Positions 5,207-21,982 of a stretch of DNA of 23,059 nt are shown here, piece by piece (positions within the stretch are counted from its first letter, which is position 1; every line of letters starts with the position of its first letter). The notes beneath the pieces were generated by a model, which was not told the DNA's origin, made no database searches, and was given only the letters and a program-made list of their open reading frames with translations. A program made the translations under genes and the position numbers. This DNA is from Macrostomum lignano. Taxonomy: Eukaryota. Where the stretch lies: positions 1 to 23,059 of the forward strand of contig NIVC01005186.1 of the NCBI GenBank assembly GCA_002269645.1, written 5' to 3'.

Positions 5207-6320
5207 GTATGAAAACTTCTCAACACATTAATTCTCGCTCAAGATCATCCAACAAGCTTGACAAGTTTGCAACTCTAAGTTTTGACCATGTCATTCTATG
5301 GTTCCCAAAGACAAATTCCCATAGTGGACCTATTTATATAAATTCTAGTTTTCTTAGCCATTTCGACAAGGCTGAGAAAATGGAATTTAAGGAGCGTCAA
5401 CAAATCAAGATTCGTGAAAAGAATGGATTCCATGATGCCATTATTGTAAAGCTCGGCACTTATGCAAAAAATTAAAATTGCTGAACAACTATTGACCGCC
5501 TTGCTGAAGAAGGTTATAGTACTGAGACAATTTTTGAGAGACTTGATAATGAAATGTCTGTTGATTTGGATGCACGAACACGAACCTCTGCTACCTATTT
5601 GGGAGATAGTGATAGCAATGAAGGTGATGATGAAGAAAATGATGAGAACTATGTGCCACCTGATGACAGGTCTACAACTTTTAAGCCTCCTTTGACAATT
5701 ACTAGCCAGACTATGTCTTTGGAAAGGCAGAAGGAAGCAGATTTGTTCAAGTCTTATGGCAATGTGATTGTGGAGCCACCACTTAAGAAAGCTAAGAGTG
5801 CAAGTTGTGACCTTATTGATAATGCTAAGAATGGTGCCTGTGCACCTTTGTACTCATCTACACCACCTAGAAAACCACAGGATGTTGCCCTAGCTCAATG
5901 TATGAGACCAAGTAGCTTTTTTGTGACTTTTACAGAGCCAGCTACTGCTGCAGCAAGCCCACTTGCTCAGGGTTCCAAACTTCAAGCACCTGAGCCTAAA
6001 GTGTTAGATTTGCTTTTGCTTGAGGCTCGAGTACAAACTGGATTGTTGAAAAAGATCATCCGGCTACAGGAAGAAGGAAATGAATTGCTCAGACAAGGGT
6101 TTGGTTTCAATGATGAGGTTGTGAGCAAAGAAGATCAAGTTATTGCTGGTTGTGATGGCCGACCCTTTCGCCTGTCTCAGTTACCATTGCCACCTAACCT
6201 TTTTGCTCATGAGTTTGTACTCCGCAAATTTGGTGAACAGCTTTGTGAAACAACAATTATTGAGTCACATGGCAGAAGTGAAAGGATTGCTATGGATGTT
6301 GATTCAGTTCAAGCTCATTC
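5207..6320 (+). pseudogene. Truncated second gene of the EnSpm-like element, acidic/low-complexity protein with a probable BEN-like C-terminal domain
   Basis: Splice acceptor TTTTCAG at 5200-5206; ORFs 5209-5475, 5462- and 5554- join through two compensating frameshifts (KLGTYAK-IKIAEQL-DRLAEEGYS); PNLFAHEFVLRKFGEQLCETTIIESHGRSERIAMD resembles the start of a BEN fold; cut at about 6320 by BEL/Pao sequence. Confidence 0.5.
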
Positions 6321-6776
6321 AGTCGGCCGCTGTTGTATGTACCTTCAGATTCAGGCGACGGTATGGGGGTCATCACACTGTCCCATTTCATTGCAGCTAG
6401 TCGTCTCAGCCAAGAACCGGAAGATATTGACGATGAGGCGGACTCCATTCTACCGCTTCCGAAATGGCTCAGAATGCTTAGAGCAGCTCTGGATTGGTTT
6501 TGGAACCAATGGAAGACGTCCTACTTGGAGTCTCTGCGCGAGAAAGCCCTAAAGGATCAACCTAACCACCGCCTACCAAATGTTGGTGAAGTAGTTCTTC
6601 TGGCAGGTGAAGCTCAACAACCAAGACTCAAGTGGAAATTGGGTATTGTCGAGGAAGTTCGTCCTGGCCGTGATGGTGCTATCCGGTCGGTTCTTTGCGT
6701 TGCGGGTGCTGGGAGTTCTTGGGAACGGGTGAGACAGCCAGTCCAGTCGTTAATTCCTTTAGAGGTTCAATCCTAA
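6321..6776 (+). pseudogene. BEL/Pao polyprotein C-terminal fragment (DUF5641-like)
   Basis: Motifs above, in the frame of ORF 6333-6776; 5' part of the polyprotein is missing. Confidence 0.85.
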
Positions 6777-7384: not shown

Positions 7385-8946
7385 GGGATTAAGACAGACA
7401 TACTTAAAAATTGTCCAATAATTTATGATACTGCCCAAGTTATTACAATCTTTTTGCATCTTTCCACTGATGGCTGTAGCTTGTACTCTAATTCTCCCTC
7501 TTCTTTGTGGCCTGTTCAAGCTCAAATTTTAAATCTTCCACATTTTTGCATTTTCAGCCAGAAAACTTCTTAATTTTTTCTCTCTTTCTTGGTGCAAAGA
7601 AGCCTAACTGGAAAACATTTCTAGAAGACCATCTGGCTTCAGTTTTTGAAAAAAACATTCTGTTTTACTATTCGAAACAGGCCTATGCATTTTCGTGTTA
7701 AACTCTTTTCGGCTACTTTTGATCTTCCTGCCTTGGCTAGCATACTAAACCATAAGCAATTTAATGGCGAGTTTGGTTGCCTTTACTGTGAAAATCCCAG
7801 TAGTACTGTTAAAGTCGGCCATGGATCCGCACGCAAGTATTCTGAGCCTCATTTATCTACTCCAGTTTCGAATGCTGTTTATTTATCACGAGTTCAACTA
7901 GTCTGTCTCTCTGGTGAGAAGAGCCTTTTTGGTATTAAGGGTGATTCTGTTCTTAGGAAGTATGTGCGCATTCCAAAGAATATTTTGCTTGATTCATTGC
8001 ACTTTCTTTATGAAAATTGTTGTGGCACTCTAATGAAATATATGTTTGATGGTTCCTACCAACAACTGAGTTGCTACCTTGGGCAAAGTCTGCCCTTCTT
8101 TAATGATACTCTTAAAAGAGTCAGCGTGCCTAAGTCAGTAACAGTACCATTTTGTCTAGAGCTTCGCTCTTCGTGGAAAGCCAAGGATTACATGTTCGCT
8201 GCAATGTATCTATTGCCTATATTTGCTTTCCATTGCTTCAGTAGGAAAAATCAGGCATGCGCCATTGCTTTGCTTTCTTTTTCTCTTGTTTGTCATGTAG
8301 CAAATTCTGTAGACTGTGAGCACTACTTGGCGCTTCTCAATAAAGTAATTCAACACTTTATGTCAACTTTAGGAACTGCATTTGATGCCAATGTATACAC
8401 AATTAATTTTCATCTCCTGTGTCATTTGCCGAACAGCTTCTCAATTTTGGTCCTCTAACAGGATACTCTATGTTCTCATTTGAGAGTCAATTTTCAACGG
8501 TAAAGAATTATATTCAAAGGAATCGATTCCATATCAAGCAAATATGCGAAAAGCTCATTCTGCAAAAATGTTGCACTTTCTGTCTTAAGGAGGGAGCTGC
8601 TGCTCAATCTAACAGCTGCATTTTTGAGCTGCTCACTTCTAAGTTTAGAATTTTATCAAGCAGTCCTTCCGCCTGCTGGCGATTTCTATCCACTTATGCA
8701 ATAGTGCAAAACAATCGTCTCTTTTATGCTACTTCTTATCCGAAATTGCCCCCTACTCGGTCATGTATTGTGCAGTTGAAAGATGGTTGTTTCTGCAAAG
8801 TAGTTTGTTTTCTGAATGGCACCGATATTTTAGCTGATGTAATTTTTTTAGACATCTGCAATTTACAAGACTTTTTAGGTAAAGTGGCTCGCTTGATGAA
8901 GAGTAGATAAATAAAGGTAATATCAACATGAAGTATTATTTGAGTT

Positions 8947-8989
8947 GCCGATGCATTTCGTCCATTTGCATTAGGACATCGTCAGGGTC
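8947..8989 (-). ncRNA. Minimal type I hammerhead ribozyme motif (left arm copy)
   Basis: Minus strand reads GACC-CUGACGA-U-GUCC-UAAUGCAAAU-GGAC-GAAA-UGCA-UC-GGC; predicted cleavage between 8950 and 8949; stem I is weak. Confidence 0.65.
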
Positions 8990-9242
8990 TTTTTATTGAG
9001 AAACAATTTGAAGAATATTCAGTATATATAGATAGTTGAGAGTAACAAGAGTAGTTGAATTGAGTTTTTAATTGATGGTTTAAAACTTGTACATAGTAAT
9101 CAATTTTTGATACAGTATTGGTTGGGTAAAGTGCATATCAGTTTCAAGCCAGTCCGGTCATTGACAAATCAGCTAAAAAATTCTGAGTTGACGGCTAGCC
9201 CCACCCATCGCAAGTTGGTTGTTTAACGTGGGCTGTTTGGTC

Positions 9243-9300
9243 TTAATGTACATGTTTAATGTACATCTTTAATGTACATTAGTTAATGTACATCTTTAAT
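9243..9300. repeat. Four TTAATGTACAT copies at 13-14-bp period, plus a partial fifth
   Basis: Copies start at 9243, 9256, 9269 and 9283; partial at 9296. Confidence 0.9.
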
Positions 9301-9620
9301 GATAAAGGCTATTGATTTTTGTAATAGAGATCACATGCTCTGCCTATTAGAAGCCCTGTACATTAAGACCAAACAGCCCACGTTAAATAACCAACTTGCG
9401 ATGGGTGGGGCTAGCCGTCAACTCAGAATTTTTTAGCTGATTTGTCAATGACCGGACTGGCTTGAAACTGATATGCACTTTACCCAACCAATACTGTATC
9501 AAAAATTGATTACTATGTACAAGTTTTAAACCATCAATTAAAAACTCAATTCAACTACTCTTGTTACTCTCAACTATCTATATATACTGAATATTCGTTC
9601 AAATTGTTTCTCAATAAAAA

Positions 9621-9663
9621 GACCCTGACGATGTCCTAATGCAAATGGACGAAATGCATCGGC
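9621..9663 (+). ncRNA. Minimal type I hammerhead ribozyme motif (right arm copy)
   Basis: CUGACGA 9625-9631, extra U 9632, stem II GUCC 9633-9636 / GGAC 9647-9650, GAAA 9651-9654, palindromic AUGCAU stem III, triplet AUC ending at 9660. Confidence 0.65.
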
Positions 9664-10410
9664 GGCTCAAATGGTGCTTCATGTTGATATTTACCTTTAT
9701 TTATCTACAAGACTTTTTGAATCTGTCCAATGTACCTATTGCTGCTGATATATTATGTTTAGCAAAGACTTTCTTGTTTATCTGCTGCCCGTCTTCTAAC
9801 ACCTGCACTATTCCAGTGGGATGTAATTTTCTGCATCAGTGTGTTTCAGTCAATAATATTTTTCCCGATAAGGACTTGTGTCTTGTTATACTAGATTCTT
9901 GCCACCATGAATATAGCTTAATTTGGGATGACTTAAAAGCTGAGTAGGAACTGTTAAAACTGAGTAAGCACTACTAAGAATTGTATCTGTCGCGGATCAT
10001 TTTCAAAATATAGATCACTTGAACCAATTGCCATACAATAATTTGCTTATTGCTTGCTAGTTGTGTATCTTGTTTGATTTTTTGTTGACTGTTGTATAGT
10101 TAGAAAAAGGTAAAAATACAAGAAAACATTTTATATGTACTCAAATTTCAATTTTAATGACTTTTAACGTTTCACTTTCTATGCAGCTTTAATTTGAGTG
10201 TTATATAAATATAATAATGGAATGCAATTGTGCATATTGTACTAATTGTACATTATAAAATGCCCTGAATAGTAATCGATTCTGGTTAGAAAAAAATCCT
10301 CTCATGTGTTTATCGTCTTCCTTACATTAATTTTCTAATCTAAAAATTCAGAACATTGGCAAAAGCCATACATGCTACTCAGAGTAAACTGTGTGTCTAT
10401 CCACCAAAAG

Positions 10411-10776: not shown

Positions 10777-11602
10777 CAAGCTGTTGAAACCCGCAGATTT
10801 TGAACCCGGGGAATTCCAATCCCCGGAACTACTTTTGCATGTATTCTAAATCTAAGGTCATGCACAAACAAAAACTTGTTAATAGTTAGTAGGAAAGAGG
10901 TAGACATAAAATGGACACATTCGTGTAAAATTAGGATTTGAAGCAAAAATTGATATTGTTGGCTGGGGTACTTCACAGAATGTCAGGCAATGTCTGTCTG
11001 ACTCTAAAACATGTATTGCTAAACTTTGGTCTCTCCCTGACTCTCCCTATGTCCCTTGGATCCTTTAAAATTTCTATCGTCTCTTCTGTTTCCTCTCTTC
11101 TCTCTCGTCCCTCGTCTCTCCTCTCTCTTCTCTCCTCTCTCCTCTCTTCTCTCATATCTTCCCTCATCTCTCTTCTCTTTCATCTCTCTTATCTCTTGTC
11201 TCTTCTCTCTACTCTCCTCTCTCTCTCTTCTCTACTTTTCGTTTCTCTCTTCTCTCCTCTCTCCTGTCTCCTCTCTACTTTTCGTTTTCTCTCTCCTCTC
11301 TCCTCTCTACTTTTTCGTTTTCTCTCTTCTACTCTCTCCCCCTCTTCTCTCGTCTCTTCCTTCTCCTCTCTATTCTTTTCTCTCTTCTCTTAACTCTCTC
11401 CTCTCTTCTCTCACCTCTTTCCTCTCTCTCTTTCCTCTCATCTCTTTTCTTGTTTTATCTCTTCTCTCTCCCCTCGTCACTCGTCTCTTCCCTCACCTCT
11501 CTTCTCTCTTGTCTGCGTTTTTATCTCTCCTTTCTCTTCTTTTATCTTTTCTCTCTTATCTCTTCTCGTTTCTCTCTGCTCTGCGCTCTCTCTCTCTCTC
11601 TG

Positions 11603-11667
<65 letters not shown>

Positions 11668-13714
11668 TCTCCTCTCCCATCTCTCTTCTCCTCTCTACTC
11701 TCTCCCCTCTTCATTCTCCTATTTCCTCTTCTCTCTCCCTGTCTCTCCTCTCTCCTCTAGTCTATGTAATCTCTTCTCTCTTATCTCTCCTCTGTTCTCT
11801 CTACTCTCCCATCTCTCGTCTGTTCACCCTCATCTCTGCTCTCTCATCTGTCATCTTTACTCTCTAATACGTTCTCTCACTTATCTCCTCTGTAATCTTC
11901 TCTTTCACCTCTTCTGACTCCTCTCTTTCCTTACTCCTCTCTTCTTTTCTCTTCCCTCTTCTATACTCTCTCTCTCCTCTATTATCTTCTCTCATCTCTC
12001 TGCACTCTCCTCTCACCTTTTTCATCTCTCATCTTTACTCTCTCATCTCTCCTTTCATTTGTCTCATCTCTACAATCTCATCTCTCCTTTCTCCCCTCTT
12101 CTTACACCCCTCTCTTATCTCTATCTCTTCTCTTCTCACTCCTCTCTCCCCCTCTTATCTCCTCTCTTCTCTATCCTTTCTACTCTCTCCTCTCCTCTTG
12201 ACCCTCTGTCATCTTCTTTCTGCTCTCTCATCTCTACTCTCTTCTCACTCTTCTTTACTCTCCTCTCATTGATCCTCTGTCTCATCTCTCCCCTCTTCTC
12301 ACCTTTACTCTTTTCTCACCTTTACTCTTTCCTCTCCCTCCTTTCTCCCCTCCTCTCGCTTCTTCCTCCCTTCTTTTCTGCTCTCTCCTCACCACTTGTC
12401 TCTCCTCTTATCTTCCATGTTTTCTCTAATCCCCCTCTCGCCTCTCCTCTCTTCTAATAGTCTATTCCTTCTCCTTTCCACTCTCATCTGGCCCGCACAT
12501 GAGCTGGATTCTTTATCTGGCTTTTGAAGTAAAAGTCTGCCAATCACTGCTTCGAAAGCCAGTTTGTGGGACGTACTACTCTCATCGTTATTCACATGCT
12601 TTGATCACGTCATCTTTCTTGCCAATTTGCAGCCCTGAAAGGAATTTGTGTAATCTTCAGCTCCACTGCAGTCTGGACTCTGGATCAGTCTAACAACCAA
12701 GGAAATACGCATTTCTTAGGAGGCCATTTAAAATTTACACACTACCTTTAAAAGAAACCTAAAATTTCCATGGTGTGGCTAATTTAGTAGGGTTGTATTG
12801 CACTGCATTGCCTTTTCATAAATCTTTCGCTTTTACAAACCATGCTGGATTCCCTCGATTTGCCAATTGCCATCCACTGTTAAACTGCTGCAGAGTTTGC
12901 CAATACAGAGGGGAGGGCAGTGGTTAGAATTTCTCACTAAACTGTTATGGCTAAACGTAGCCTCTCCACTCTCGGGGTGCGAGAAGGCTATAAATAAAGT
13001 TATTCCAAAACACTCTACATTTGCTATGTACATTCAGTCCTATTGCCTGACCCTTCGTCTGGCTCTGGGGGGAATGAGTGGAGTGAGTGAGTGGCACAAA
13101 CAACAGAAAAAGCAGACAAACTTCACATGCTTACAGTTTCTTTTTCGGTTGAGTTACAGAGTTGAAACTTTACATTTAGACAGAGAATGGGTCAATGAAG
13201 AATTGTGTCAAGTTTGAAGTCAATCGTTTTACGTGGAGCAAACTTAGGGCAGCTGAAAGTTAGTCAATTTTGAAACCCTTTTACACATCTGGGCCCAGAT
13301 CGGGAAAGAGAGGCAGGCAGGCGGAGGTTGGGGTGGCTGTCTCGCTGAAAAAAACAGCCTAACTTTAAAAGTGCACAGCGCCGTTCAGGATTAACTTTGA
13401 GATTTAAAATTTTACACGATTGTGTCAAAATAGTTAAAAATTGCCTGTGTCAAATTTGAAGAGAATCGGTAGAAGTGGAGTGGCGCTATGGAGGATTTAG
13501 TAAAAAAATCGCGCATTTTGAGCAGTTTTTTGTACTTTTAGGTAGGAAGACTTGAGTCTAGGAAATTTAAAGGTAGCCTAAGACATTCTCCGTAGTAAGT
13601 TTAGGGTGGGTATAAAATTTGGTGTCATTTGGTTGAGCGGTTTGGGAGTCCATAGCGATCAAAATTGTCCACACACAGACACACACACAGAGTTTTGATT
13701 TTTATATGTAGAGA
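10777..13714 (-). mobile_element. Putative non-autonomous Helitron-like element (about 2.9 kb)
   Basis: On the minus strand it begins A|TCTCTACATATA next to a (GT)-type microsatellite (13670-13690) and ends CTTG|T with a GC-rich hairpin CCGGGGA/TCCCCGG (10806-10826) upstream; A|T target with no TSD; AAATTT...AATCG-type modules at 13204, 13446 and 13611. The end is CTTG rather than canonical CTRR. Confidence 0.5.
11071..12488. repeat. Degenerate CT-rich (homopyrimidine-biased) tract of about 1.4 kb with a perfect (TC)27 core at 11611-11664
   Basis: Directly visible; the plus strand is nearly devoid of purines. Confidence 0.95.
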
Positions 13715-14802: not shown

Positions 14803-15139
14803 TGTAATAGTGCTCAATTTGCGTGCGCGTGCACTTCTAGTGTTTTCTCCGTATTTCTTTCTGCGTCACCCCACCCCTGCGTATAGCCTTTTCTAGAAAT
14901 TTCTTTTTGTTTCTGATTGGCTGAAAACGCGTGAATAACGAGCCCCAACCAATAGAGTGCTTAGTGCCTACCCTATCGGCGAAATCCGATTGGTTAGGAT
15001 TTTCTAAGCTGCGTTTTTCACCCTGCCCTCCCCCATCGCGGTCAGTCTATTTAATCAAGCAAGCTGGAACGCAAATAAATCAAGTTTTTCTCTGACTAAA
15101 GAAGTCCCGGCAGTTAAAACTCAAGAATACGCGGCTACA
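14803..15139 (+). repeat. 5' LTR (337 bp)
   Basis: TGTAATAG...GGCTACA; no differences from 20723-21059 by eye. Confidence 0.97.
14916..15079 (+). promoter_or_regulatory. LTR promoter/polyadenylation signals: three CCAAT boxes, TATA-like TATTTAA, AATAAA
   Basis: ATTGG 14916-14920, CCAAT 14949-14953, ATTGG 14989-14993, TATTTAA 15048-15054, AATAAA 15074-15079. Confidence 0.6.
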
Positions 15140-15140
15140 T

Positions 15141-15155
15141 TGGCGACCACGCCAG
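15141..15155 (+). other. Primer-binding site, probably tRNA-Arg
   Basis: TGGCGACCACGCCAG one base after the LTR; its complement reads as a tRNA 3' end (CTGG-CGTGGTC-G-CCA). tRNA identity is inferred. Confidence 0.75.
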
Positions 15156-15163
15156 TTTTCCAC

Positions 15164-16288
15164 ATGTGGAATAACGACGACTACCTGGAACTACGTGGAC
15201 GTCTCGTCGGACGACGGCGCAACGCAGGCGACGAGGCAGCTTCCGTTTCTACAGAGTCTACGAACGCGTCCAACCCCTTCGTGTCGATGACCACAGTCAG
15301 CGAAGCCACAAATCCCTTCCTCGTTGCCAACGACCTTCAGAGGGCACACTCGGCGGAAGTCTCAACCAACCCGTTCCTTGAAGACATCGACCAAGCGTCA
15401 GGGCAGGCCTCAGCAATGCAGCAGTACGCCTATCCTCCAGCTCACGGATACGCAGCGCTGCCAGACTACAATCCAGTACCGGCTCTTCCGCCAGTACCTA
15501 AGCCTGCACCGTACAACGGTCGGGAGGATTTCGACGACTTTCTCATCAGGATCAGCGCCTATATTAGCCGGTTCCCAGGCCTTCGAGACGCCGACAAGAT
15601 CAACACCCTGACTGCGTTCCTCGGACCGGCTTTTGCAACGTACACCACCTGGCTGGCGATCCAGTGTGCCTACGTCGGACTGCCACCGGGGACAACCCTG
15701 GACCAGCTACCTGGTGTCCGCTATGAGGGCCTCGTTGAACACCTCCGGTCTCGTCACGGCGGGGCCAAGAGTGCAGCGTTACTTCGCCGCGAGTTCCGTG
15801 CTCGGCAGCGTCGACCAGAGGAGAGCTTCGAAACGTACCTGACGGAGCTTCAACGGCTAGCTGCAAGGGCATACCCGGACCCAAGAGCTCAGGCTTACGT
15901 CCAACAGACAGTTAGCGAGCAGTTCATGCATGGTCTCAATGACGGCTACGTCACCGAGCGACTACTGAATCAACCAACACCACCAAGCACTGTGGAGCAG
16001 GTTCTACGAATAGCCCAGCAGCTTCGAGAAACCCGGGCCTACATGGATGCTGGCCGTGGCGAAATCCAGCCCCAGCAACCGAGACCACCACAGAGCCAAC
16101 TTTCAGCGCCACCGAAACCACTAATGCCTCAGCAGCCTGCCTCATCTGGCGGTCGAGGACAGCAACGACAGCAATCACCGGCTAGTTCCAACTGTTTCGG
16201 CTGCGGTCAGCCGGGCCACATCCGACGCAATTGCCCAAACGCCGAGGGGGCTGGTTCACGAGGCCAGCACCGGCCCTCTCAGCACTAA
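15164..16288 (+). CDS. gag: Gag polyprotein with a single CCHC zinc knuckle
   Basis: First ATG at 15164 (the ORF track starts at a TTG overlapping the PBS); PKPAPYNG...F, QRRPEESFETYLTELQRLA capsid-type motifs; CFGCGQPGHIRRNC. Confidence 0.92.
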   Translation: MWNNDDYLELRGRLVGRRRNAGDEAASVSTESTNASNPFVSMTTVSEATNPFLVANDLQRAHSAEVSTNPFLEDIDQASGQASAMQQYAYPPAHGYAALPDYNPVPALPPVPKPAPYNGREDFDDFLIRISAYISRFPGLRDADKINTLTAFLGPAFATYTTWLAIQCAYVGLPPGTTLDQLPGVRYEGLVEHLRSRHGGAKSAALLRREFRARQRRPEESFETYLTELQRLAARAYPDPRAQAYVQQTVSEQFMHGLNDGYVTERLLNQPTPPSTVEQVLRIAQQLRETRAYMDAGRGEIQPQQPRPPQSQLSAPPKPLMPQQPASSGGRGQQRQQSPASSNCFGCGQPGHIRRNCPNAEGAGSRGQHRPSQH

Positions 16289-19200
16289 CGCATTCGGCCT
16301 CAACACCACGCCTCAGCAGCTGCCAGCCTGGCCAGGTGCGCTTCGTCACAGCGCGCATCCTTAGACGACGGCGCCACTGTCTGATCGACACCGGGGCAGA
16401 GGTGTCCTGCATCAGCGATGACATATGTAAGAAAGCTAGGCGGCGGCTGCAGCCCAGCAGCATCATCATAAGAGGCGTGGATGGCAACCTACAGTCTGTG
16501 CTGGGCGAGACTACTTTGGCAGTGACTCTGGGAACCGTACAAGTCCATCATCGTTTCGTCGTACTCGAGAAGCTTCACCCGACGTCCGTCATCCTGGGCT
16601 GTGACTTCCTCAGTGAACACGACGTCTCGGTCCATCTCCAAGCCGGTTGCATCACTTTCAACAGCCTAGGCGTGTCGATTCCAGCTCGAAAAAGTAAAGA
16701 GGCAGCACAGACCTGCAAGCTCGTATCAGCGGCCTCCGTGCAGCTGCAGCCAGGGGAGCGCTGGATAATCCCCGTTAAACCAGCAAAGTCGGCCTCGTGG
16801 ACGCGATCGGAGTGTCCAGGAGTCGTCACCGGCACAAGATCACAGGGGCTCCTGGTGGGTCGTTGTGTTGCCAAGCTGGTCGAGAGAGGCATGGGCCTAG
16901 CAGTCATCAACGTCGACGACCACACGGTCAACATCAGCGACGGCGACATTGTTGGCATCTTTTCCCCGCTAGGAAGTCAGCCATTCGTTCAGCAATCGGG
17001 TGCCGCTGGCAGCACGGCGGCGACGGCCGCTGGCAGCACGGCGGCGACGGCCACTGGCAGCACGGCGGCGACGGCCGCTGGCAGCACGGCGGCGACGGCC
17101 GCTGGCAGCACGGCGGCGACGGCCGCTGGCAGCACGGCGGCGACGGCCACTGGCAGCACGGCGGCGACGGCCACTGGCAGCACGGCGGCGACGGCCGCTG
17201 GCAGCACGGCGGCGACGGCCGCTGGCAGCACGGCGGCGACGGCCGCTGGCAGCACGGCGGCGACGGCCGCTGGCAGCACGGCGGCGACGGCCGCTGGCAG
17301 CACGGCGGCGACGGTCGCGGTCAGCACGGCTACATCAACAACAGCTTTAGCGACGGACTTACCTCGCACCAACTGGCTGAACGACGTGCACATCGAAAGC
17401 TCTATCTCCGTCGAAGAGCAACAGTCGGTCAAGGATTTGCTGTTAGAGTTCAGCACCGTTTTTGCATCCCCTGGCAATGCTGGTCGAACTGCAGTCCTGC
17501 AGCATCGCATCGACACCGGCGGGGCAAGGCCGATCCGGCAGGGTTTGCGGCGTGCAGCGCGTCCAGTCATCGACAAGCAGGCCGAATTGATCGACGACAT
17601 GCTGACCAAAGGAGTAATCCGGCCGTCTTCATCGCCTTGGGCTTCGCCAATCGTGCTTGTTCGTAAGAAGGACGGGACAGCGCGCTTTTGCTTAGACTAT
17701 CGACTGCTCAATGAGGTCACCAAGCCGGACGCTTTTCCAATTCCGAGGATCGACGACACACTCGATGCGCTGCAAGGCAACGCCTACTTCTCGGCACTCG
17801 ATCTGGAGAGTGGCTACTGGCAGGTTGAGGTCGAGGAGCGCGACAAAGAGAAAACTGCTTTCATCTGCCATCAAGGCCTCTTCGAGTTCAACGTCATGCC
17901 GTTTGGTCTGCGCAATGCCCCGGCAACCTTTCAACGCCTCATGCAGCTGGTGCTCCAAGGCCTGACCTGGCAAGCGTGCCTGGTCTTCATCGACGACGTT
18001 ATTGTCATGGGCCGGACTATCGAGGAGCACAACTATCGGCTGCGGGCGGTGTTCGAGCGGCTGCGGGACGCGAACCTACGCTTGAAGCCATCTAAATGCC
18101 ATTTCGCCAACACCACGATGATCGTCTTGGGCCATCGAGTTTCCAAGTCGGGTATCACCGTCGACGAGTCAAAGACTGCTGCGATCCGAGACTGGCCTAC
18201 ACCCCGAACTTCCAAGGAGGTCAAGAGCTTCCTAGGTCTCGCAGCCTACTATAGACGGTTCATTCGGGATTATTCAAAGATCGCCGAGCCGCTACGACGC
18301 CTGACGGTTCCGACAGAAAGGTTTCAGTGGACGTCCAAGGCCCAAGAAGCATTCGACCAACTGAAGGCAACACTGACCTCTGCTCCAATCCTCGCCTTCC
18401 CGGATACTAGTGCGACCAGCTCGGAGTTCATTCTGGACACTGACGCCAGCGACTGCGCCATTGGTGCGGTACTCTCTCAACTGCAGGCGGGCGAAGAACG
18501 AGTCATCGCGTACTCCAGCAGAGCACTAACAAAAGCCGAGCGCAACTACTGTGTAACGAGGCGGGAGCTGCTGTCCGTCGTTGAGCATGTCAGGAAGTTC
18601 CGGAATTACCTGCTGCCTCGGAAGTTCACCGTGCGGGTCGATCATCAGTCTCTAACGCACCTGCTGACATTCAAGGAGCCCGAAGGTCAACTCGCGCGGT
18701 GGCTGCAGACGCTAGACGAGTTCGACTTCAGAGTACTCTATCGGCCGGGCCGTCAACACAACAACGCCGATGCGCTGTCCCGTCAGCAGCAGCGCTGTAC
18801 CAACCAGTGTCGGGTGTGTCGACCAACAAATGAGACCACCAGCAGGACGACATCCTCGGTTGCCTGCCAGACCGACGCCAACAGTGATGCCGCCGCTGCC
18901 GCCCAGATCAACGCAGCGACCATCAAGCTAGTGTCGACGGCTACCGACGAAGCTGTTCAGACCGACAATGTGCATGTCTGCGTCGGCACCGTGCCATCAA
19001 GGCGCAAGCAAATCCATCAGCCCCGGTCGGACGACAGCGAAGAAAGCAGCAGCAGCGAGGACGACACCAACGAAGATGAATCCGCAGCGCCAGCGGCAGA
19101 CAACAGGCCACCGACGCTACGTATGCTTCAGCTGCAGGATCCGGTTATCAGTCCGGTGTTCCGACTGCTGGCCGACGGCAAGACTAGGTTTACCGACCGA

Positions 19201-20466
19201 CAACGCGACCGAGTACCGCCGGAGAGCCTGGTGCTGGCGCAGAAGGTGCATGACTTGTGTTTCGTGAACGGTACACTGCACAGGCTGGTCAACACAAAGC
19301 CAGTACCCGTCATTCCCCGCTGCCGACAACGCGAATTTGTCGACGAGATTCACAACGTCGGCCACCTGGGCGAAGTCAAGACGCTGGCCAGCCTAAAGAC
19401 GCGTTGCTACTGGCCAAAAATGTCGGAGAGCGTCCGGTTGGCCGTTCGGTCATGCCAGGTTTGCCAGCGGGCAAAGACTCCGGTTATCAAGCGGGCGCCG
19501 CTACAGTCCATCACTGCAGGGTTTCCAATGCAGCGTGTCGGGTTCGACATTGTCAAGGTCGGCGCTTCCAGAAACGGCAACGATCGGATCCTGAGCATCG
19601 TCGACTACTTCAGCAAGTGGACGGAGCTGGTGCCGATTCCGGACGAGAAGGCGACGACAATTGCCAAGGCCCTCTTCAACAACTGGATCTCCAGGTGGGG
19701 TGCTCCGCATATTCTCCACTCCGACCGCGGCAAGAGCATCGATGGCCGCATCATTCGCAGTCTCTGTACACTATTGGAGGTCGACAAGACTCGAACGTCG
19801 GGCTATCATCCTCAATGTGACGGCCTCGTGGAGAGATTTCATCGGACACTCCATCAGATGTTGCGCTGCCACCTTCAAACTGTCGATCCGCTGGACTGGG
19901 AGGACGCCCTGCCGTACTGTCTCCTAGCCTATCGAAGCAGCATCAGCGCGACGACCGGATTTTCCCCACATTTCCTGATGACGGGCCGGGAGGTGGTTCT
20001 GCCATTGGACGTTGTCTATCGGTCCCCAGAGCCTCCATCCGTCGTCGGCCAGTACGCAGTAGAGACCATTCAACGACTGCAGGACGCCTTTGACGCTGTG
20101 CGGAGGTCAACTGGCGCGGCTCAACGACGGCAGAAGCGGTACTACGATCTGAAAGCCCAGAAGCGCAAGTTTCGCACCGGCGATCTAGTGTGGCTGTTCG
20201 TTCCGCCTGCTGTGCTGTCCAGGACCAACTGTCTGCCTCCGAAGCATCAATCACCGTGGACAGGCCCATTTAAAGTCATGCGCAAGACATCACCTGTCAA
20301 CTACTTGGTGCGGCCGATCAATTACACGGACGGGGAGATCAAGGGGCGCGTCGTGCATGTCAACAAGTTGAAGCGAGCGTGTCTGCAACGGACCCAGTCT
20401 GCTCAGCGTGCTGATCAGGACGCCAGTAGTGACGATGAAGGGCAACTTGTTGACGCTGAGGACTGA
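16231..20466 (+). CDS. pol: Pol polyprotein (aspartic protease, dUTPase-like remnant, repeat linker, RT, RNase H, integrase with GPF motif); -1 frame relative to gag
   Basis: LIDTGA (D at 16387), ILGCDFL; RT motifs LDYR, LDLESGYWQV, MPFGLRNAPATFQR, FIDD (17986-17997); RNase H DTDAS...NYCVTRREL...DH...ADALSR; integrase HHCC, D-D-E core, WTGPF; no chromodomain; no internal stop codons. Confidence 0.97.
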   Translation: MPKRRGGWFTRPAPALSALTHSASTPRLSSCQPGQVRFVTARILRRRRHCLIDTGAEVSCISDDICKKARRRLQPSSIIIRGVDGNLQSVLGETTLAVTLGTVQVHHRFVVLEKLHPTSVILGCDFLSEHDVSVHLQAGCITFNSLGVSIPARKSKEAAQTCKLVSAASVQLQPGERWIIPVKPAKSASWTRSECPGVVTGTRSQGLLVGRCVAKLVERGMGLAVINVDDHTVNISDGDIVGIFSPLGSQPFVQQSGAAGSTAATAAGSTAATATGSTAATAAGSTAATAAGSTAATAAGSTAATATGSTAATATGSTAATAAGSTAATAAGSTAATAAGSTAATAAGSTAATAAGSTAATVAVSTATSTTALATDLPRTNWLNDVHIESSISVEEQQSVKDLLLEFSTVFASPGNAGRTAVLQHRIDTGGARPIRQGLRRAARPVIDKQAELIDDMLTKGVIRPSSSPWASPIVLVRKKDGTARFCLDYRLLNEVTKPDAFPIPRIDDTLDALQGNAYFSALDLESGYWQVEVEERDKEKTAFICHQGLFEFNVMPFGLRNAPATFQRLMQLVLQGLTWQACLVFIDDVIVMGRTIEEHNYRLRAVFERLRDANLRLKPSKCHFANTTMIVLGHRVSKSGITVDESKTAAIRDWPTPRTSKEVKSFLGLAAYYRRFIRDYSKIAEPLRRLTVPTERFQWTSKAQEAFDQLKATLTSAPILAFPDTSATSSEFILDTDASDCAIGAVLSQLQAGEERVIAYSSRALTKAERNYCVTRRELLSVVEHVRKFRNYLLPRKFTVRVDHQSLTHLLTFKEPEGQLARWLQTLDEFDFRVLYRPGRQHNNADALSRQQQRCTNQCRVCRPTNETTSRTTSSVACQTDANSDAAAAAQINAATIKLVSTATDEAVQTDNVHVCVGTVPSRRKQIHQPRSDDSEESSSSEDDTNEDESAAPAADNRPPTLRMLQLQDPVISPVFRLLADGKTRFTDRQRDRVPPESLVLAQKVHDLCFVNGTLHRLVNTKPVPVIPRCRQREFVDEIHNVGHLGEVKTLASLKTRCYWPKMSESVRLAVRSCQVCQRAKTPVIKRAPLQSITAGFPMQRVGFDIVKVGASRNGNDRILSIVDYFSKWTELVPIPDEKATTIAKALFNNWISRWGAPHILHSDRGKSIDGRIIRSLCTLLEVDKTRTSGYHPQCDGLVERFHRTLHQMLRCHLQTVDPLDWEDALPYCLLAYRSSISATTGFSPHFLMTGREVVLPLDVVYRSPEPPSVVGQYAVETIQRLQDAFDAVRRSTGAAQRRQKRYYDLKAQKRKFRTGDLVWLFVPPAVLSRTNCLPPKHQSPWTGPFKVMRKTSPVNYLVRPINYTDGEIKGRVVHVNKLKRACLQRTQSAQRADQDASSDDEGQLVDAED
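16234..16301 (+). promoter_or_regulatory. Candidate -1 programmed ribosomal frameshift signal (slippery C CCA AAC plus H-type pseudoknot)
   Basis: Heptamer 16234-16240 in correct gag phase; stem 16244-16255/16269-16280; loop GAGGCC 16260-16265 complementary to GGCCTC 16296-16301. Confidence 0.7.
17002..17313 (+). repeat. In-frame minisatellite, 13 x 24 bp (GCC[G/A]CTGGCAGCACGGCGGCGACG), encoding (A[A/T]GSTAAT)13
   Basis: Units every 24 bp from 17002; ACT variant in units 3, 7 and 8, otherwise identical. Confidence 0.97.
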
Positions 20467-20708
20467 CTAACGCACGTTGAGGACTGACTGACTGGTTGTA
20501 GCCAGCAGTTTTGCTTTATAGGTCGTAGGTCTAGAACTTTTTAATAGCGTCTATCTATTAGCTTAGTAATCCTGATTTAGATTTAATTGTTCGAAACCCG
20601 GTTATCTCGAATTGTTCTATTTGCTACAGCTGGTTCTGTTCTTCCCTATTGGAGTAGCTTTCATCTGTCGTTTCCACCCCTTGGGTTTAATGAGGACATT
20701 AAACTGTT

Positions 20709-20718
20709 GAAAGGGGAG
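20709..20718 (+). other. Polypurine tract
   Basis: GAAAGGGGAG four bases upstream of the 3' LTR. Confidence 0.75.
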
Positions 20719-20722
20719 CTTT

Positions 20723-21059
20723 TGTAATAGTGCTCAATTTGCGTGCGCGTGCACTTCTAGTGTTTTCTCCGTATTTCTTTCTGCGTCACCCCACCCCTGC
20801 GTATAGCCTTTTCTAGAAATTTCTTTTTGTTTCTGATTGGCTGAAAACGCGTGAATAACGAGCCCCAACCAATAGAGTGCTTAGTGCCTACCCTATCGGC
20901 GAAATCCGATTGGTTAGGATTTTCTAAGCTGCGTTTTTCACCCTGCCCTCCCCCATCGCGGTCAGTCTATTTAATCAAGCAAGCTGGAACGCAAATAAAT
21001 CAAGTTTTTCTCTGACTAAAGAAGTCCCGGCAGTTAAAACTCAAGAATACGCGGCTACA
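20723..21059 (+). repeat. 3' LTR (337 bp)
   Basis: No differences from the 5' LTR by eye. Confidence 0.97.
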
Positions 21060-21982
21060 AAAACTAAATTTAAAAAACCGGGCTTAACCTTTCTAAGAAA
21101 GTAAAAGTAAAACGAAATTAGTTAAAATGAACTAGTTCTCTACAGTTTAGTAAAAAGATTTTCAGTTTTAACTCATAGGTTGATCAAATATTAAAATTGT
21201 GCAAGCTTTTCATATTAGTTGTAGTTTGTAATTTCTATTTTGGCGTATTTTTGTATGCGATAAAAAGTTCGTTGGCGTACATTGGCGTGCATGAGCTACG
21301 GAAGCAATTTTCGTTCCGGCGTACAGCGGTACACGATCCTGACCCTGGTGTGTACTGTGTACATTGTTATCAAATATCAATATCTACCTTATAAAACATT
21401 GTCATTCACCATTCTATTAATTGGTTTATGAAAAAGTAGGAATCCAGCTATTGGCAAAATTTATTCACAAACAAAATAGTTTGCTCCTGGTCACTTTTTT
21501 CTTCGGACTCTGAACCTGACCCAACGTCCATTTCGCTTTCGCGAATTGGCCAGCCAACAATTAGTTTGAATCAAATAGTGAAATTTCTTGAAAACAAGAT
21601 CTTACTAAACAAAGTAATGTAAACAATCTAATATTAAAAATCTAAAGCTGATTTATGCAAAAGTTTATTACAGGTCGGAAAAATATTTAGAATTAAAATA
21701 AATCATTAACCGTTGAATAAAGAAGCCTTAAGGGCGATGTTGGGTTGATTGTTGATTGATGATGCAATCAAAAGGGACTGGGATTGCAATATCAATATCA
21801 TATAAGCCTAACCATAACTGTGCAATGTGCCTTGTATGGTAGGCGTATGCACTGTTAATCGAAGGCCAAAGGCTATCGAAGTAACTCCTAAACATGCGCC
21901 TTTAAAAGAAAAAGAGTCTATTTTTATAGGCATGAACCATAGCATAGGCCAGTAGGCAGTAGGCCTAACCCTTTTTGCTCTA

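Follow-up and report, generated by a model that had tools for sequence, protein, structure and literature searches.

In the 2003 survey of Gao et al. pol lies in the −1 frame in 28 of 51 animal long terminal repeat (LTR) retrotransposons, many of which have classical slippery heptamers (as summarised in PMC5009743). PEG10 (Edr) and PNMA3 (Ma3), which derive from Ty3/gypsy elements, make Gag-Pol through a −1 shift out of gag at an X XXA AAC heptamer that is followed by an H-type pseudoknot (PMC13622457, PMC5009743). Heptamers follow the rule X XXY YYZ and spacers are usually 5–9 nt (PMC7618472), and the base pairs lying 7–8 nt downstream set the efficiency of frameshifting (PMC3561942). In a screen in human cells XXXAAAC was a favoured class (bioRxiv 10.1101/469692). 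We have analysed the gag/pol junction of a Ty3/gypsy LTR retrotransposon that lies at positions 14803–21059 of a 23,059-nt stretch of Macrostomum lignano DNA (contig NIVC01005186.1, forward strand; this whole stretch is the window). Sequence comparison and modelling of the RNA indicate that the junction very probably directs a programmed −1 frameshift of the classical heptamer-plus-pseudoknot kind.

Protein and pattern searches of the same genome revealed eight families of related elements, A (the element of the window) to H. The identity to A over the region from reverse transcriptase (RT) to RNase H is 88, 80, 78, 66, 63, 49 and 44% for B, C, D, E, F, G and H respectively. Families A–F form a single clade (Shimodaira–Hasegawa approximate likelihood ratio test, SH-aLRT, 100) in a quick tree of these families and their metagenomic relatives. 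The features of the junction, with the stems as predicted, are:

15164–16288, plus strand: gag open reading frame (ORF), 374 aa from the first ATG, with one CCHC zinc knuckle at 16193–16234
16186–20466, plus strand: pol ORF in the −1 frame, with Pfam matches to protease, RT, RNase H and integrase
16234–16240, plus strand: slippery heptamer C CCA AAC, beginning on the third position of the last Cys codon of the knuckle
16241–16247, plus strand: 7-nt spacer, which in A–D pairs with 16277–16283 as a lower extension of stem 1
16248–16255, plus strand: 5′ strand of core stem 1, with a 7-bp core shared across families
16250–16268, plus strand: competing hairpin of putative role, mutually exclusive with both stems
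16260–16265, plus strand: 5′ strand of stem 2, in the loop of stem 1, with two two-sided changes in family C
16269–16283, plus strand: 3′ strand of stem 1 (core 16269–16276, lower extension 16277–16283)
16286–16288, plus strand: gag stop codon TAA, within the linker between stems 1 and 2
16296–16301, plus strand: 3′ strand of stem 2, 3′ of the gag stop

The initial annotation placed pol in the −1 frame, open from 16186, and took CCCAAAC at 16234–16240 as an X XXY YYZ heptamer in the gag phase. Both assignments are correct. A TAG at 16183–16185 is followed by an open frame extending to 20466, the gag stop is confirmed at 16286–16288, and the heptamer reads C CCA AAC (Cys-Pro-Asn) at the end of the knuckle, conforming to the canonical rule of zero-frame X XXY YYZ with Y = A or U and Z not G. 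The codons for the final Cys-Pro-Asn of the knuckle contain the predicted slip site. It is the sole mismatch-free XXX-YYY heptamer at the 35 gag-phase positions tested in the 103-nt overlap (16186–16288). The motif G GAU UUC at 15526 is also in gag phase but was rejected; a −1 stop at 15565 means that it cannot feed pol. There is no in-frame ATG in the pol frame between 16186 and 16500, leaving pol without a start codon upstream of the protease. The stretch in which a frameshift could enter pol is narrowed by −1-frame stops that lie 27 and 33 nt upstream of the heptamer in copies of families D and E. The predicted transframe peptide reads ...RNCP(N/K)RRGGW, as had been proposed.

Downstream of the heptamer the pairing that had been described was found in full. 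Stem 1 pairs 16244–16255 with 16269–16280 (12 pairs, two of them G-U), the loop sequence GAGGCC at 16260–16265 is the exact complement of GGCCTC at 16296–16301, and the 15-nt linker at 16281–16295 contains the gag TAA. Two further pairs, made by G16241 and C16242 with C16283 and G16282, had gone unnoticed, and with these the nested helix starts immediately after the heptamer. The nested fold has z = −2.05, with 3 of 200 shuffles equally good. We scored pseudoknots from stacking energies, allowing perfect helices only and using dinucleotide shuffles and nearby start positions as controls. The scorer recovered exactly the pseudoknot of the initial annotation, at −41.6 kcal/mol, a value reached by none of 200 dinucleotide shuffles and at none of 95 nearby positions; stem 1 alone contributes −21.9 kcal/mol. 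Across representatives of the families the scored pseudoknot beats its shuffles in eight of nine (0–1 of 200 shuffles reach it). An Rfam scan of 16000–16600 gave no match to a frameshift-element family, the only hit being a chance small RNA (E = 3.7) on the other strand.

The heptamer is conserved. In all six families A–F the knuckle ends in TGC CCA AAC; among the copies seen, the exceptions are one F copy (L095) and three decayed copies (L111, L112 and L120), which have CCCAAAT. Family G has G GGA AAC and family H has U UUA AAC. The codon usage of the elements alone predicts TGC CCA AAC at 0.137 per family, and in three non-element loci none of the 11 knuckles that read Cys-Pro-Asn uses it, two having CCCAAAT; the knuckle peptide therefore does not force the heptamer. 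These three control loci (L123, L124 and L125) are host genes in which CCHC knuckles recur and the spacers are rich in RGG; we take them to be Vasa-like and CNBP-like from their motifs. A pattern of heptamer, gap and stem has 46 matches in the genome, and its reversed control has none.

Conservation climbs exactly at the heptamer, not where the open overlap begins. With B, C and D pooled, the same codon is used at shared residues in 44 of 45 cases from the heptamer to the gag stop. The corresponding values are 16/29 in the knuckle just upstream, which is already within the open overlap, 204/450 in gag and 837/1683 in pol. Part of the jump in codon identity at the heptamer is double coding, and it thus places the change of frame there. 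Past the gag stop, the segment 16295–16301 is conserved at 7/7, 5/7 and 6/7 positions in B, C and D respectively, compared with 3/6, 2/6 and 2/6 for the adjacent 16289–16294.

The pairing potential of both stems is conserved. In nine A–D sequences 96.8% of stem cells are paired, against 36–58% when the partners are slid. All pairs of the 7-bp core of stem 1 can form in seven of eight families, and six of the seven in F. Covariation among family members had been suggested as a check, and we observe two-sided changes in both stems, although the independent events are few. In core stem 1 these occur at pair 1 (G-C/A-U/U-A), pair 4 (C-G/U-A/G-C) and pair 5 (U-G/U-A/C-G), and in stem 2 they are G-C to U-A and A-U to G-C. 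In E, G and H the predicted stem 2 recurs, with linkers that range from 10 to 19 nt; the scorer gives it 5 bp in family H. Alignment with MAFFT did not register stem 2 across the distant families, and the registers were set by script and by hand. Family H (L097/L218, G000:C530) differs in having a further ORF upstream and a longer interval from frameshift site to protease. The interval is longer by about 280 codons, and the added stretch begins with a putative cold-shock-type domain, as judged by its motif.

We also drew 84 loci from metagenomic and viral collections and examined 69, excluding 15 in which RT lies less than 1 kb from the contig start. These 69 comprise 27 with a −1 overlap, 11 with a single ORF, five with a stop abutting pol, seven that are otherwise arranged or broken and 19 that lack a knuckle. 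Within the 27 overlaps, 23 strict heptamers lie in phase and one out of phase, and 21 elements carry one; in 14 of these 21 the pseudoknot is reached by no more than 5 of 100 shuffles. Gypsy-type relatives in this set (L131, L154, L155, L169, L175 and others) resemble the window element in having a −1 overlap after the knuckle, an in-phase heptamer, a 5–7-nt spacer and a predicted two-stem pseudoknot. They differ in that the heptamer is mostly G GGA AAC or U UUA AAC and lies some way past the knuckle. C CCA AAC is found in two of the 21, L154 and L135; in L135 it sits at the knuckle end, and no pseudoknot was found there. L127 and L128, the metagenomic relatives placed closest by the tree, have broken junctions with no usable signal.

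Two other arrangements were seen among these relatives. Five loci (L132, L137, L140, L156 and L190) have an in-phase but imperfect G UUA AAC site, four of them with a similar predicted pseudoknot, and L137, L140 and L190 cluster on the tree with L141 and L201, which have U UUA AAC. In L142, L143, L158, L160 and L207 the gag stop directly abuts an in-frame pol, in every case as TGA-C, and these are candidates for stop-codon readthrough.

The following sequence of events would account for the signal. Ribosomes translating gag would pause at the predicted two-stem pseudoknot. A minority of them would move back by one base at C CCA AAC and continue in the pol frame, with tRNA-Pro and tRNA-Asn re-pairing from CCA AAC to CCC AAA. 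The majority would terminate at the TAA at 16286–16288 to give the 374-aa Gag. Those that slipped would make a Gag-Pol of about 1770 aa in which the zinc knuckle is complete. Pairs within the first 7 nt past the heptamer would be unwound inside the ribosome, so that the working barrier would be the core stem, which starts at 16248 and is rich in G-C pairs, with stem 2 locking it.

This bears on the length of the spacer, which had been put at 3 nt, shorter than the usual range unless the first pairs melt. The outer pairs do exist, in A–D only, and the half-suspected melting is in keeping with what we find. The 3-nt value itself probably does not describe the working spacer, since the core of stem 1 that is common to all eight families begins 6–7 nt past the heptamer, within the 5–9 nt rule. 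The lower extension begins right after the heptamer in A–D and is broken in the registered copies of E, F, G and H, although a bulged lower stem is possible in the E copies L092 and L093. The outer pairs within 0–6 nt of the heptamer are likely to be an added lower stem that is melted by the ribosome. Given the published spacer range, the melting lower stem of human immunodeficiency virus type 1 (HIV-1) and the greater weight of pairs 7–8 nt downstream, the short apparent spacer is not anomalous.

The same region can form a competing hairpin, proposed in the initial annotation as a possible switch. It pairs the 5′ strand of stem 1 with the loop, through six clean pairs and a U-G, at −8.4 to −9.8 kcal/mol. 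In A–D it is paired in 63 of 63 cells with zero two-sided changes. Its energy is −9.8 to −14.2 kcal/mol in A–D, compared with −2.4 to −7.1 kcal/mol in E–H. The energies are the fairer comparison, because the ungapped test on E and F was biased against the hairpin, E being shifted by one column. The hairpin can therefore form, but it is strong only in the four sister families, with no two-sided change to speak for a switch. It is possible, though we think it rather unlikely, that the A–D signal is a two-state device. In such a device the lower stem would hold the pseudoknot register until melted by the ribosome, leaving a remainder near-equal in energy to the register-shifted hairpin, and the partition between folds would set, or let the cell tune, the yield of Gag-Pol. 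The strong rival hairpin and the lower stem do co-occur in A–D, as a single phylogenetic event, and the suggestion draws on this one clade and on computed energies.

A number of observations weigh against frameshifting at C CCA AAC with a pseudoknot stimulator, or lessen the force of those above. The stretch from the heptamer to the gag stop codes in both frames, inflating nucleotide conservation. Families A–F share ancestry, and their six heptamers are not six independent events; similarly both stem 2 changes belong to a single lineage, family C. The number of pairs with two-sided changes did not by itself exceed the shuffle control (170/500 and 291/500). Family F fails the pseudoknot score (55/200 shuffles) with a U·C mismatch in stem 1, the scorer taking perfect helices only; stem 2 of family D is just 5 bp, and the registers of G and H were set by hand. 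Seven of the 21 metagenomic elements with heptamers have no pseudoknot above the bar, including L135 with the same CCCAAAC at the end of its knuckle. Lastly, when the spacer is masked the nested folds of A and B (−20.1 and −20.6 kcal/mol) lie close to the pseudoknot estimate of −21.1 kcal/mol, and those of C and D (−25.0 and −23.7 kcal/mol) are more stable than the estimates of −22.0 and −19.8 kcal/mol, these estimates being rough.

One alternative is that slippage occurs at C CCA AAC but is stimulated by the stem 1 hairpin alone, with an upper stem and a spacer-formed lower stem in the manner of HIV-1, stem 2 being dispensable. The −21.9 kcal/mol of stem 1, the description of a spacer-paired lower stem in HIV-1 (PMC7618472) and a stem 2 of merely 5–6 bp across a 15-nt linker are all in its favour. 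Yet the 3′ strand of stem 2 lies past the gag stop and is still more conserved than its neighbours, stem 2 has two-sided changes in family C, and it is found across the varied linkers of E, G and H, making a hairpin-only stimulator improbable. We consider it very improbable that the RNA translated into Pol is spliced or separately initiated, the heptamer and stems then either serving packaging or dimerisation or being by-products of double coding. AG dinucleotides do occur in the overlap, and structured RNA near the ends of gag can serve other roles. However, there is no pol-frame ATG before the protease, conservation rises at the heptamer rather than at the start of the overlap, and the heptamers of the relatives show a 23:1 phase bias. 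Contigs from three of four sequencing runs also cross the junction unbroken with no joint listed, run X6 giving no coverage past 16254; this is weak, as the runs are guessed to be RNA and may be DNA. Of the data sets listed as containing the sequence none is recorded as RNA, 14 being guessed to be so.

Gag-Pol might instead arise through slippage of a polymerase or reverse transcriptase in the G-run after the heptamer, or from fused copies supplying Pol in trans. In three assembled family C copies (L076, L105 and L109) the G-run is indeed longer and gag and pol form one uninterrupted frame. Against this, none of the four sequencing runs compared shows the longer G-run of L105, though contigs drop rare variants; the window element has a run of only five G, a long run is missing from families E, F and G, and this route would not require the heptamer to be conserved. 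There is thus very little likelihood that Gag-Pol is made in this way. A −1 frameshift at C CCA AAC with an H-type pseudoknot, as first proposed, is the reading favoured by the conservation, by the two-sided changes in stems 1 and 2 and by the bias in heptamer phase among relatives.

The element that contains the signal has the following further features:

14803–21059, plus strand: complete LTR retrotransposon, with LTR pair, primer-binding site, gag, pol and polypurine tract
14803–15139, plus strand: 5′ LTR, 337 nt with TG...CA ends, all 337 nt matching the 3′ LTR
15141–15155, plus strand: 15-nt primer-binding site that can pair with the 3′ end of host tRNA-Arg(ACG)
17002–17330, plus strand: 24-nt tandem repeat, 13.7 copies, inside pol, encoding an 8-aa Thr/Ala/Gly/Ser linker between protease and RT
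20709–20718, plus strand: polypurine tract, preceding the 3′ LTR
20723–21059, plus strand: 3′ LTR, identical to the 5′ LTR over 337 nt

This is an intact, recently inserted Ty3/gypsy retrotransposon. The order of the Pfam domains (gag, protease, RT, RNase H, integrase) is that of Ty3/gypsy elements; within gag zf-CCHC is above the cut-off (E = 1e-4) and Retrotrans_gag below it (E = 9e-4). A candidate 4-nt target duplication, AAAA, flanks the element and is repeated at 21060–21063; given the A-rich flanks it is weak on its own, and elements of families C and G have 4-nt target duplications too. A pattern for the 3′ arm of the tRNA matches 55 times in the genome, compared with none for the control pattern, and ARAGORN called tRNA-Arg(acg) at all three loci scanned. 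The closest named database relative in the RT–RNase H region, P0005, is 80% identical and has a flatworm source name.

A DNA search of the same genome, with 40 of 46 candidates scored, gave at least 21 copies at 99–100% identity, at least three at 93–94%, at least three at 86–87% and at least 13 at 77–79%. The copies at 99–100% have the same arrangement of gag and pol frames, 19 of the 21 without an indel across the stretch displayed, and since so many near-identical copies share it, the frame offset is the normal state of family A. The open pol frames of family A are 1426, 1418, 1402, 1394, 1386 and 1362 aa in length. They differ by multiples of 8, which suggests that the number of 24-nt repeat units varies among copies. 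The repeat is also present in family B, and the motif was not found in C–H. Four internally deleted relatives of family A (L219, on contig G000:C3769, and L022–L024) retain gag and the frameshift signal unchanged; their similarity ends inside the protease with no RT found, and they are probably non-autonomous derivatives. In family C the length of the G-run after the heptamer varies among copies (L076, L105, L106, L109 and L068), some of which form a single gag-pol frame. We rejected the fused frame as a biological trait of this family; it is a probable homopolymer assembly error, because the longer L105 run is absent from all four runs compared.

Elsewhere in the window there is a long inverted repeat at 8919–9691 (240 nt at 100% and a further 94 nt at 95%). 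It is adjoined by ORF fragments at 7625–8910 that give the impression of a decayed DNA transposase but have no Pfam or NCBIfam hit; an NCBIfam scan of two upstream ORFs likewise gave nothing. A DUF5641 domain at 6303–6776 (E = 3e-14), which we presume to be of the kind found in the integrase tails of BEL/Pao retrotransposons, is probably a remnant. The contig starts with a degenerate tandem array of 26–27-nt units (5–432), and a 1.4-kb CT-rich tract of low complexity occupies 11030–12450.

No description of a C CCA AAC shift site emerged from our literature search, which did not extend to the Edr paper, the slippery-site mutagenesis of 1992 or the retrotransposon survey of 2003. One apparent report (PMC12086091) was set aside, the sequence there lying in a primer. 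Nor did the search, within the same scope, find a description of the frameshift signal of the family A element. As far as it shows, there has been little testing of frameshift signals from the LTR retrotransposons of invertebrates. Eight families with three heptamers, one pseudoknot scaffold and natural compensatory changes make a handy comparative series, suited to the performance of C CCA AAC, the role of a spacer-paired lower stem and the tuning of yield by rival folds.

The mechanism is a textbook one that will not surprise the specialist, and what is new is this retrotransposon family. In every sequence-level comparison the signal behaves as one that would work like those of PEG10, PNMA3 and the retroviruses. 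PEG10 also has its gag stop in a loop of the pseudoknot, as here (PMC13622457, PMC5009743). PEG10 and PNMA3 differ in having G GGA AAC in place of C CCA AAC, and in being domesticated genes where the window element belongs to a still-mobile, multi-copy family. The elements surveyed by Gao et al. are mostly from Drosophila, unlike the present one. In HIV-1 gag-pol, as in A–D, the spacer forms a lower stem with sequence on its 3′ side, and in HIV-1 the ribosome gains access to the heptamer only when this stem melts (PMC7618472); the HIV-1 heptamer is U UUU UUA and the structure a stem-loop, while the upper stem here is predicted to be pseudoknotted.

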